Positions 50,613 to 55,189 of a stretch of 64,000 nucleotides of DNA are shown one piece after another. The position numbers and the translations under genes were made by a program. The notes beneath the pieces are model-generated. The model did no database searches. It was not told where the DNA came from and saw only the letters and a list, made by a program, of their open reading frames with translations. Position 1 is the first letter of the stretch. Each line of letters starts with the position of its first letter. This stretch comes from Octopus vulgaris (Eukaryota), in contig OX597815.1 of NCBI GenBank assembly GCA_951406725.2, positions 19,716,001 to 19,780,000 of the forward strand. Direction: 5' to 3'.

Positions 50613-50972
50613 TATATATATATATATATATATATTGTGTGTTTGTGTGTGTGTGTATTTATATGTGTGTATATATATGGCTATTATATATATATATATA
50701 TATATACATATATACATGTATATGTATATGTATATATGTATATATATATATATGTATATGCATATATATGTGTATATATATGTATATGCATATATATGTG
50801 TATATATATGTATATATGTATATATATATGTATATATATATATATATATATGTGTGTGTATATATATGTATATATATATATACTTTGATACTTTGATACT
50901 TTGATAGGTTTCGGCCATTATTGGCCCAGGCCATGTCTAACTTAATAGCACCACCTGGTGAAGTCTTTCAAG

Positions 50973-53266
50973 TCAGAATTTGGGCACTATGGCCCACTCA
51001 AGTAGAGAGTTATTGTTTACAGAGACATATCCGGGTGTAGGGGGTTTATCCGGGATTTCTTGAAGGAATCTGTCCAAAGACTTCTTGAACCCTATAGGGT
51101 CAGTTTCTGTTTTAATGTGTTTTGGTGTAATGTTAAAGAGAGCGGGGCCAATTGAGGTGAAATAATTGTGCCGTATTGTTGTTATGAGATGAGAGTGCGA
51201 TTTTTGTTTTGGGCGGATGGCACGGGGCCCAAGCCTTGGATGTACCTTAAAGGTGATGCCAACATCATTTGGGCAATGCTGATGGAATATTTTCCACATC
51301 ATGCAGATGATGTAGCGCTCACGACGACGTTGGAGAGAATAGAGTTTTAGCTTTTCTAGTCGACCCCAATAGTCGAGGCCTGTCATGCCATCTATCTTTT
51401 TTGTGATTGCCCTTTGAGGTGCTTCGACTTTTTTGATACCTTGTATTGTGTGGGGAGACCACAGTGGACAACAGTATTCAAGGTGGGGTCGGGCAAAAGT
51501 GGAGAAGAGAAGGATAATGGTGTGGATATCTCTCGACTGGAAAGTTCTGAGAATCCAGGAACACATTCTGCGGGCCATGTCAACTTTGGTGTTTATATGA
51601 GTGGCCCAGCTTACGTTGTTGTCCACAATTACTCCCAAGTCTCTGATGTTGTTGGACGCCGCGAGAGTTTCACCTGAAGGAAGGGAGTATGGGAGTTTCA
51701 GGGCATCCTCTTTTCCAAAGTGGATTAGCTCAAATTTATCCTCGTTCAGCAGCATATTGTTTTTTTCTGCCCATTGGATAACAGCCAGTAGATCTGACTG
51801 AAGGCATGTCCGGTCACTCGCCTCATTTATGACCTTCTGTAGCTTGGAGTCATCTGCAAAGATTTTTATGTTGCTGTGCTTGATGATGTCATTAATGTCA
51901 TTAATGTAAATGATGAAAAGAAGTGGGCCCAGCACAGTGCCTTGCGGAACGCCACTACTGACTTTGGCTGGGCTTGATTTTACCCCTTCAACTACAACAT
52001 GTTGAGATCTGTCTGTCAGGAAACACTTAATCCATTTCAGTAACTTTCCAGAGACACCAATGTTGGATAGTTTTTTCAATAGGATCTTGTGATCGACCCT
52101 GTCGAAGGCCTTACTGAAATCAAGGTAGATGACATCGGTGTTGGAGCCCTCTCCCAAAGCTCTCAAAATGTCCTCAAAGTGATGCAGGAGCTGCGTTAGG
52201 CAGTCCCTTCCATTACGGAACCCATGTTGGTTGGAGATCAGCCGTCTGTTGCTTTCCAGAAATTGGGTTATTTGAGATCTCACCACCCTCTCAAATACCT
52301 TGATGATATGAGAGGTGAGTGAGATCGGACGGTAATTCACTGCAAGGGACTTGTTTCCCTTTTTGAAAACTGGGACAACAGACTGGGACAGAAGGTTTTT
52401 TGGAATATAGCCAGCATCCAGTGAGTTTCTCCACAGATTAGCAAGGGGAGATGCAAGTTGGTGTCGACACACCTTCAGGACACAAGCAGGGAACCTATCG
52501 GGGCCTACTGCTGAATTGTGTTTTATTTCGTTTATCGCCGCTAAGACATCAGGGGCACTAAACGTTATGTCCGATATAGTGTGTTGGGGGTTGACATCAC
52601 TGATACAGCCCAGATCGGCCATATCAGGATTGCTGAAAACAGAGCAGTATTGTTTCTGCAGTATCTCGGCCATGGATTTGGCATTATCTTGGAGAGTGCC
52701 AGTTTCGTCAATTAGAGGGCCTACAGTGGAGACAGTGACCCTGCGTTTCCTCGCAAATGAAAAGAACACTTTGGGGTTGAGTTTGATTTTTTCAATGGCC
52801 CACTTCTCCTCAGCTGATCTTTGGTTATTGATGAGGGACTTCATGCATTGTTGGAGGTTATATTTTTTGGATTCAAGCAGTGCGATAGCCGTCGAATGTG
52901 TGTGTTGCTGTTGGCAGTACTTTAGTTTGTTAATTTTTTTGTTTGTTCTTTTTATTTTTCTGATAATGGTTTTTCTGTTTTGGGGGATTCTGCACTTTTT
53001 GTTCACAGGTCTTGGTGGGGAGTGTTTTGCACATATGTCTGTGACGGTGTCTACAAAGATCTGCCAAGATGTTTTATGGTTGGTGGAGATGTGTGTATGT
53101 GTAAAGGACCAGTCAACATTTGATAGCTCGTTCCTGATTGCATCCCAGTTGGCTTTATGGAGATCCATGTTGTCAAATGGGTGGGCTGGAGGAAGGTCAC
53201 TAGGATTAGCTTTCGGCTGGTGGAATTTCATGTTACAGAGAACCATGTCATGGTCTGAAAGAAGGG
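50973..53266 (-). CDS. LINE ORF2, reverse transcriptase part
   Basis: GPD, YRPISLTS, QHGFR, YLDFSKAFD, GVPQGTVLGPLLF, FADD, RDLGV motifs; open for more than 757 aa. Confidence 0.95.
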
Positions 53267-54091
53267 TTTTTCCACTGTAACGTTATGTATAGTGTTAGTG
53301 TGGTTACTAAACACTAGGTCCAAAATGTTCTGATGTCTTGTTGGTGCAAGGACAAGTTGGGACAAGAAAAACTCATTCGTAAAGTCGAAAAGTGACTCTG
53401 CTGCTTCTTTGTCAGCGGTTGAGGCGGGAGTGCTTGGTTTCAAACAGTTTGTAGTCCAGTCAACACAGGGTAGATTGAAGTCTCCCATCATGAGTATGTT
53501 GCTAGAATGGCACTGTTGAATAAAGCACTTAATGCTGTTGAGGCATTCTTTAAAGCACAGTATGGGTGTTTGGGGCGGCCTATAGAGCCCAATTACTGTC
53601 AGATCATTGGCTTTGTTGTGCACGGTGACTGATTCACAGTAGCCGTTGGAGAATATACTATTTCCATCTGCCGTAAATGAATCATGCAGGAAAATGGCAG
53701 TTCCACCCTTCCTCCTGCCGATACGATCCGCGCGGATGGTTGTGAAATTCTTCACTCTCACTTCGGCTTCCAAGTGGGAGTTGTCAAGGTGGGTCTCAGT
53801 GAGAATGAAGAAAGGGATGTGGTGTGAATGGTTACCAACCCAGTCTTCAATGAATTGGACCTTCCATTTTTGTGCATTGATGGAAGGGCTGACACCTTGT
53901 GCATTGAGTAGGAATGTGGAGGTTAGTGTAGTGGCTGGTTTTGACTGTTGCAGGGGGCTTGGATTTTTTGTGTGTGTTAGTGGCAGCAATGTGGGGAATT
54001 GGTGCACTGGGGTAATAGCATAGGATGGTGTTGAGTGATGGCTAGAATGTTTTTGTGTATCTCTTTTGCCATGTTCAACATGGCTAAAAAA
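53228..54091 (-). CDS. LINE ORF2, apurinic-like endonuclease part
   Basis: LLNAQG, LTETHL, GLYRPP, MGDFNLP, LDLVF; the SDH motif is reached only by restoring one A at 53267-53271. Confidence 0.9.
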
Positions 54092-54180
54092 TTTTCCTGC
54101 TTAGGGAGCAGTTTTTGGCTGGAGGTGTGGTTGCACTGTTGGATAGGGTTGTAGTTTCCACTTTTTTGTTGTTGTTGTTG
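53977..54180 (-). CDS. Probable C-terminal remnant of LINE ORF1
   Basis: Open frame [10 protein letters not shown]...[19 protein letters not shown]...CCH* directly upstream of and overlapping ORF2; assignment is by position only. Confidence 0.5.
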
Positions 54181-54470
54181 TATATATATGTGTATGTATA
54201 TATATATGTGTACATATATATGTATATATATATAGATATGTACATATGTATATATATATGTGTACATATATATGTATATATATATAGATATGTACATATG
54301 TATATGTATATATATTTGTATATGTATATAAATATGTGTATATGTATATGTATATATATGCATATATATGTATATGTTTATATGCATATATATGTATGTA
54401 TATATATGTATATTTATGTATACATATATGTATATATATGTATTTATATATATATATATACATATATATA

Positions 54471-54589: not shown

Positions 54590-54980
54590 AATATTACAGC
54601 AGCTGTGTCAGACAGCTTCTACCTGGTCGAAATACATGCTGGGTGTCAGTCAGCAAGTCATTTTCTTCCAGGAACGGGATTAGTTTCTTGCGGACTATTC
54701 GTTCCATGACTTTACTGACGCGTGAGGTCAGAGAGATAGGCCTAAAATTGTTAGCATCTGCTCTGCTTTCTTCCTTATGGATAGGGCATATTATCCCTTC
54801 CTTCAGTTTGTCTGGGAGCTTATCACTTGCAAGGAAGCTCTGGAAGAGAAGCTGCAGTGGTTTTGTAAGAGCTCTGATTTCCATGATTTGAGCAGGACCG
54901 TTGGGAACACATCGGGGCCAGCTGCTGAGTTTGTGTCAATCTCATATATGGCCAGCATTACATCTTCTTCAATGTTTCTT
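54590..54980 (-). pseudogene. Older CR1-like LINE RT fragment
   Basis: AAGPDVFP...ICPIHK...NFRPISLTS...MERIV...[15 protein letters not shown], frameshifted and diverged from the adjacent LINE. Confidence 0.85.
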
Positions 54981-55189
54981 TGGTGAGACTCAGTTTGAGA
55001 TATTGTTTAACACAACGAATCAACCGCTCCGTATTTTCATCCTGAACAACAGCTAGTTTTTCTTCATTAGGCAGCTCCAATTAATACTTGTTAATCTTCT
55101 GAAATTAATAACCGTCTAGTTTTCCTATAGCGATGCTGCCATTGATAAACCTCTTTCACTGCACTTCATCTATGTGGGTGCACCAGCCG

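Follow-up and report, generated by a model that had tools for sequence, protein, structure and literature searches.

A retrovirus-type slippery heptamer at the ORF1–ORF2 junction of octopus LINEs points to probable ORF2 synthesis by −1 frameshifting

How does a LINE make its ORF2 protein when the ORF2 frame holds no start codon ahead of the endonuclease? The question is raised by a LINE copy in a 64,000-nt stretch of the Octopus vulgaris genome (contig OX597815.1, positions 19,716,001 to 19,780,000; the window), in which ORF2 overlaps the end of ORF1 in the −1 frame and a slippery heptamer, U_UUU_UUA, lies at the start of the overlap. The translation of LINE ORF2 is called an open question in the consulted sections of two reviews (PMC5009743, PMC3894237), with reinitiation as the standard answer; the first lists the initiation of L1 ORF2 as unknown. 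Reinitiation and internal entry are discussed in PMC3894237 and PMC2881922, and a frameshift model is absent from the portions of both that were available. Comparison of the window copy with its family, with two further families of the same genome and with distant lineages suggests that ORF2 would be made as an ORF1–ORF2 fusion by programmed −1 frameshifting at U_UUU_UUA, a reading to which we give a probability of roughly 0.77.

The window copy belongs to a young family, here family 1, and its parts are collected in Table 1. Its 5′ end is cut at ∼54181, with microsatellite sequence upstream, and no more than the final ∼70 codons remain of ORF1; its 3′ tail consists of tandem 8-nt repeats. A domain search of ORF2 finds an APE endonuclease (PF14529, E 1.7e-11; PF03372) and a reverse transcriptase (RT; PF00078), and gives no match to an RNase H domain. 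The family thus has the features of an APE-type LINE: APE and RT in ORF2, and dispersed 5′-truncated copies with a common 3′ tail. The closest named protein match is from Argonauta hians (56%). The element is putatively of CR1/L2 (Jockey) type, judged from the short tandem 3′ repeat and the lack of an RNase H match. The window copy cannot make a full ORF2 itself because of the second frameshift at 53271–53267. Other loci of the family (L271–L288) likewise have (TA)n microsatellite flanks and an 8-nt tandem tail at the end, and an insertion preference for TA repeats is possible. Another LINE family (family 2), with more copies and the same junction type, is represented by a piece of its RT at 54594–54990 of the window (minus strand).

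Table 1. Features of the family 1 copy and its ORF1–ORF2 junction, in window coordinates.
Feature	Position	Strand	Remarks
5′-truncated young LINE copy (family 1) set in a (TA)n microsatellite	50881..54181	−	shares 99.8% identity with a natural full-length family 1 copy across 3214 nt
ORF1 3′ end	53977..54181	−	stop TAA at 53979-53977
U_UUU_UUA slippery heptamer, in phase with ORF1	54085..54091	−	minus-strand T TTT TTA, read N-F-L
TAA that bounds the −1 frame on its 5′ side, with the opening of the ORF2 frame directly after, at 54100	54101..54103	−	
7-bp hairpin GCCAUGU-UGA-ACAUGGC, directly 3′ of the heptamer	54068..54084	−	predicted fold
Alternative predicted stem-loop starting 4 nt past the heptamer, candidate stimulator	54029..54080	−	
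ORF2-frame CUG that precedes the ORF1 stop by 7 nt, candidate reinitiation codon	53984..53986	−	
ORF2 first piece: ∼60-aa linker, then APE endonuclease	53228..54100	−	
Second frameshift of the window copy	53267..53271	−	in an A-run with one base less than most copies have there
ORF2 second piece: reverse transcriptase	50973..53282	−	PF00078 E 3.5e-30

A preliminary description of this stretch had placed the heptamer in the upstream frame, with an ORF2 frame shifted by −1 that opens a few codons before it and stays open into the endonuclease, and each of these points is borne out. The lack of an early AUG also stands, at a corrected distance: the first AUG of the ORF2 frame (53491, codon index 203) lies ∼198 codons past the heptamer rather than the ∼170 aa given before, and the first endonuclease motif, LLNAQG, begins at 53911. 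That the upstream frame is ORF1 was right, but it is the other family copies that show this and not the short remnant in the window.

A pattern search with a free gap at the junction recovers 350 genomic copies of family 1 that reach it. The main form has a 9-nt junction with U_UUU_UUA in the ORF1 frame (189/350 copies), and 46% of copies depart from it; a hand count of the first 100 gives gaps of 9 nt in 60, 8 nt in 20, 7 nt in 10, 6 nt in 9 and 10 nt in 1. The window junction (T6, 6-nt form) is a minority form, and the main form is 3 nt longer with the same phase and heptamer. The main contig has the 9-nt form in all eight short-read runs, from eight studies; such contigs drop rare variants and so do not show the shorter forms to be errors. 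A different history, in which the −1 phase results from a 2-nt deletion and ORF2 has an upstream AUG, was suggested by the 30 best BLAST-type matches to the window, 18 of which have an 8-nt junction, a different phase and an upstream AUG. It was rejected because that sample is biased by alignment score, and the unbiased count and the short-read contigs give the −1 form. The junction variants do not form one subfamily, since they share several SNP backgrounds with the main form, nor do they come from copies of low quality overall, since the rate of gap openings elsewhere does not differ (0.56 vs 0.48 per copy).

In all 30 main-form copies examined, ORF1 has the same tail and the −1 frame opens four codons before the heptamer, and a complete ORF1 of 408–409 aa is present in ten. 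The first AUG of the ORF2 frame is at codon 204 in 26 copies, past both the first endonuclease motif (codon 64) and the TETH motif (near codon 100); it is earlier in three (codons 84, 114 and 197), and one copy stops early. Either of two findings in other copies had been named as evidence against the −1 arrangement: an AUG ahead of the first endonuclease motif occurs in none of the 30, and one continuous reading frame is confined to a minority, with fused frames in 11 of the first 100 copies. Seven full-length copies were pre-selected for an intact ORF1 and intact first 511 codons, and in six of them a 1,036-aa ORF2 stays open in the −1 arrangement. Family 1 therefore shows the layout of a programmed −1 site, namely an X_XXY_YYZ heptamer in the ORF1 frame and a −1 ORF2 that is open from the heptamer without a usable AUG. 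The initial observation is confirmed, with a stronger case in the family as a whole than in the window copy.

An in-phase heptamer, a −1 ORF2 without a start codon before the endonuclease, and relatives that keep or swap heptamers together make ribosome slippage likely. Most ribosomes would finish the 409-aa ORF1, and a fraction would slip back by one base (tandem −1 slippage) at a low rate to give a fusion of about 374 + 1,037 residues (∼1,410). As in Gag-Pol, the endonuclease-RT would thereby stay scarce and linked to its own RNA. The ORF1 part of the fusion, taken from a full copy (L037:406-1635), has a Myb/SANT-like N-terminus, a poly-Q stretch and two CCCH-like fingers; the matches are to PF13837 (E 2.4e-5, below the curated cut-off) and zf-CCCH_2 (E 0.089). 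Its C-terminal half (residues 215–409) has no homologue among 123 candidates at E 0.01.

The 7-bp hairpin that the preliminary description had seen is present (−8.3 kcal/mol, z −3.2), but a role as stimulator does not fit its spacer of zero: it begins at the last base of the heptamer and would presumably be open with a ribosome on the site, the usual heptamer–stimulator spacer being 5–9 nt (PMC5009743, consulted section). It forms the upper part of a 15-bp hairpin predicted for the main form, in which the U-run is paired as well, with an A-rich stretch at ∼54067–54060 (−16.0 kcal/mol, z −5.2; none of 200 shuffles as stable). A ribosome might have to open a long hairpin that hides the U-run, and the freed 3′ arm could perhaps form a new stem, 4 nt downstream, with a stimulating role. 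Folding of family 1 without the heptamer gives a best stem at that position (−10.3 to −10.8 kcal/mol, z −1.9 to −2.3); this stem is not recovered in a third family of the same genome (family 3), the equivalent reaching just −3.5 kcal/mol. Across 34 lineages, in minimum-energy folds without pseudoknots, downstream folding does not exceed controls (mean z −0.36 vs 0.15 and −0.19; p 0.13 and 0.43), and no conserved 3′ stimulator was found by folding in families 1 and 3 or across these lineages. Some 30 nt past the heptamer, GCCA/UGGC/GCCA of family 1 (L037) corresponds to GCUA/UAGC/GCUA of family 3 (L102), and the middle segment can pair with both neighbours; as possible covariation between two families only, this is suggestive at best.

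The T-run of the heptamer is a hot spot of length change: it differs in 40 of the first 100 family 1 copies (39 shorter), against 0–14% of copies at the 32 other runs of 5–7 nt. The variation may be due to RT slippage or to long-read error. At the corresponding site the run changes length in 17/100 copies of family 2 and phase in 8/100 of family 3, and the families rank in the same order by instability as by the predicted stability of the hairpin in which the run is paired (−16.0, −10.6 and −4.7 kcal/mol in families 1, 2 and 3).

Families 2 and 3 have the same kind of junction. Family 3 is 66% identical to family 1 in endonuclease/ORF2. It has 107 copies, and U_UUU_UUA is kept in ORF1 phase in 89 of the first 100 (87 exact, two with an in-phase upstream duplication; the others comprise three substitutions and eight length changes). 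The ORF2 of family 2 is 38–39% identical to that of family 1; its heptamer is U_UUU_UUG, and among the first 100 of its 219 copies the six Ts are in phase in 82, all of them exact, the others having one substitution and 17 length changes. Both families have an AUG between the heptamer and the endonuclease. In family 2 this AUG is kept in subfamilies, and the ORF1 stop falls inside the first endonuclease motif; in family 3 an AUG stands at the site of the family 1 CUG, 7 nt before the ORF1 stop.

The comparison was extended by scans for distant relatives, which supplied 160 loci, 80 of them the best of 454 and 80 the best of 165. Together with four representatives from the octopus genome itself they gave 78 rows that have an ORF2 with the endonuclease start and a closed 5′ end, those that were too short or cut having been dropped; 19 lacked a readable ORF1, and merging at 60% identity leaves 52 lineages. 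ORF2 is in the −1 frame relative to ORF1 in 38 of these, in frame in nine, in +1 in four and separated by a gap in one. A strict heptamer (XXX or GGA, then AAA or UUU, last base not G) occurs in ORF1 phase in 31 of the 38 −1 lineages, against two and five in the other phases. It falls within the first 90 nt of the overlap in 30 of the 38, where the rate in upstream ORF1 predicts 2.9 and a redrawing of codons under an unchanged peptide predicts 8.4; none of 100,000 such simulations reaches 30/38, although the lineages share ancestry, so that p-values overstate independence and the counts are not counts of independent events. Overlaps of at least 100 nt contain a heptamer in 24 of 27 cases, 23 of them within the first third. 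The heptamer and its phase are conserved beyond the constraint of the protein. One weaker control tells against a clean frameshift story: a strict in-phase heptamer is present in the last 270 nt of ORF1 in 8/14 lineages outside the −1 class, compared with 32/38 within it.

In a quick tree of 53 rows without named reference elements, the family 1 clade (seven rows, SH-aLRT 100) is −1 with a heptamer throughout, placed 3–24 nt past the opening of the −1 frame: five U_UUU_UUA, one U_UUU_UUG and one A_AAA_AAC. Sister lineages elsewhere in this tree exchange U_UUU_UUA with U_UUA_AAC, and A_AAA_AAC with C_CCU_UUA or G_GAA_AAC; the types found include those ranked most shifty in the relevant section of PMC5009743. 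Given its peptide, each of the closest outside relatives would hold a heptamer by chance with a probability of 0.07–0.08, and an open −1 overlap with one of 0.004–0.11. The preliminary description had looked to related LINEs for conservation of the heptamer and its phase and for lack of an AUG. The former recur in two other families and in distant lineages; the latter is seen in 18 of the 38 −1 lineages, the remaining 20 having, like families 2 and 3, an in-frame AUG before the first endonuclease motif. On balance these lineages favour, less firmly than the reading for family 1, the view that retrovirus-style −1 frameshifting would be the usual ORF2 route in a large group of animal LINEs (CR1/L2-type), with at least six heptamers swapped, readthrough in sister lineages and, in family 1, a hairpin over the slippery run as a switch.

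The chief competitor is termination–reinitiation as in SART1 or L1: a restart at the CUG of family 1 or the AUG of family 3, each 7 nt before the ORF1 UAA, with a heptamer that just encodes a conserved S-F-L helix. The shared position of these codons and the retention of the family 2 AUG speak for it, as do the findings, in the available parts of the papers, that L1 accepts any sense codon in place of its ORF2 AUG (PMC1965478) and that ORF2 of both SART1 and L1 depends on ORF1 translation (PMC2881922). The peptide at the heptamer fits it too: an x-F-L-x-x-M pattern is conserved in the ORF1 frame, and it is on this frame that selection across the overlap acts (8 synonymous and 9 non-synonymous of 26 codons). 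Reinitiation does not explain, however, why −1 lineages outnumber +1 lineages by 38 to 4, why heptamers are specific to one phase and sit at the start of the overlap, or why they are swapped for others of slippery type. Just 4/38 −1 lineages have an AUG no more than 30 nt from the ORF1 stop, 18 have none at all before the endonuclease, the family 2 stop lies inside that domain's first motif, and the chances in the closest outside relatives are low. As the sole route reinitiation is thus unlikely, and the two routes may both operate.

The unstable U-run would also suit an RNA polymerase that slips there and yields in-frame transcripts, so that fusion occurs at the RNA level, and fused-frame genomic copies do exist. 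Cis preference is established for L1. Were such transcripts the only source of ORF2 protein, cis preference would fill the genome with fused copies, and the fused class amounts to just 11/100; the length changes are moreover mostly deletions, and phase is seldom altered in family 3. Polymerase slippage is accordingly very improbable. Only slightly better placed is an incidental arrangement, arising from a decayed copy, an assembly error, or internal entry or a non-AUG start unrelated to the heptamer. The truncated, broken window copy with its minority junction and the 8-nt form of its best matches invite this reading, but the score bias of those matches, the unbiased count, the eight short-read runs and the spread of variants over several SNP backgrounds weigh against it; decay in particular is largely refuted.

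Programmed −1 frameshifting in family 1 has partial precedents, cited here from the consulted portions of each source. HIV-1 gag-pol (PMC5009743) has the same heptamer, as the preliminary description had stated, in the same phase, and likewise an RNA-binding first ORF overlapped by a polymerase ORF that lies in the −1 frame and has no start of its own. In contrast with HIV-1, family 1 is a non-LTR element (APE and RT, tandem-repeat 3′ tail), and its predicted hairpin includes the U-run, with a stem candidate at 4 nt in place of the usual spacer. That studied LINEs use reinitiation alone is too strong a statement: ORF2 of the APE-type non-LTR elements TRE5-A and TRE3-A of Dictyostelium is said to need a −1 frameshift (PMC5911963), in another host and element group and in a passage that gives neither heptamer nor experiment. 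The gag of Drosophila HeT-A, also non-LTR, is said to need frameshifting, but the shift lies within gag and the element has no RT (PMC5009743). SART1 and human L1 resemble family 1 in a bicistronic RNA and a low ORF2 output dependent on ORF1 translation, and differ in a separate ORF2p made by reinitiation at UAAUG or across an inter-ORF gap (PMC3894237, PMC2881922, PMC1965478); family 1 has instead a 124-nt −1 overlap that starts at the heptamer. Slippage would depart from the restart route described for well-studied LINEs. For Paramecium non-LTR groups 1–3, recoding of ORF2 was also proposed from consensus sequence, but as a +1 shift, reinitiation or readthrough and not as −1 on X_XXY_YYZ (PMC5405496).

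No description of a slippery −1 site in CR1/L2-type LINEs was found in a search that lay outside older CR1 papers, Repbase, supplements and most subscription papers, so an earlier mention is possible. The words frameshift, slippery and overlap are absent from PMC13343379, on CR1-group elements, as are frameshift and overlap from PMC4120745; PMC10294476, in the part consulted, lists mollusc LINE types and nothing more. If the frameshift reading is true, these LINEs make a fusion of an RNA-binding protein with an endonuclease-RT, and models of particle assembly and cis preference change. Many ORF2 proteins in databases would then be truncated within the endonuclease: among 58 homologues in which a TETH-like motif can be recognised, 36 begin so near it that the first motif does not fit. 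A Gag-Pol-like junction in a young 350-copy family is also a short and directly testable cassette.

Several related LINEs (L148, L149, L164, L201, L221, L223 and L248) have ORF1 and ORF2 in frame with one stop codon between them, and several of these stops stand in what we take to be readthrough-like contexts (TGA CAA, TAG CAA). A scan of the collection with an endonuclease-led alignment gave no confirmed relatives, and viral contigs gave none with either alignment. Among loci L191–L270, many records with prokaryote titles carry whole eukaryote-type LINEs, which are most likely contamination.
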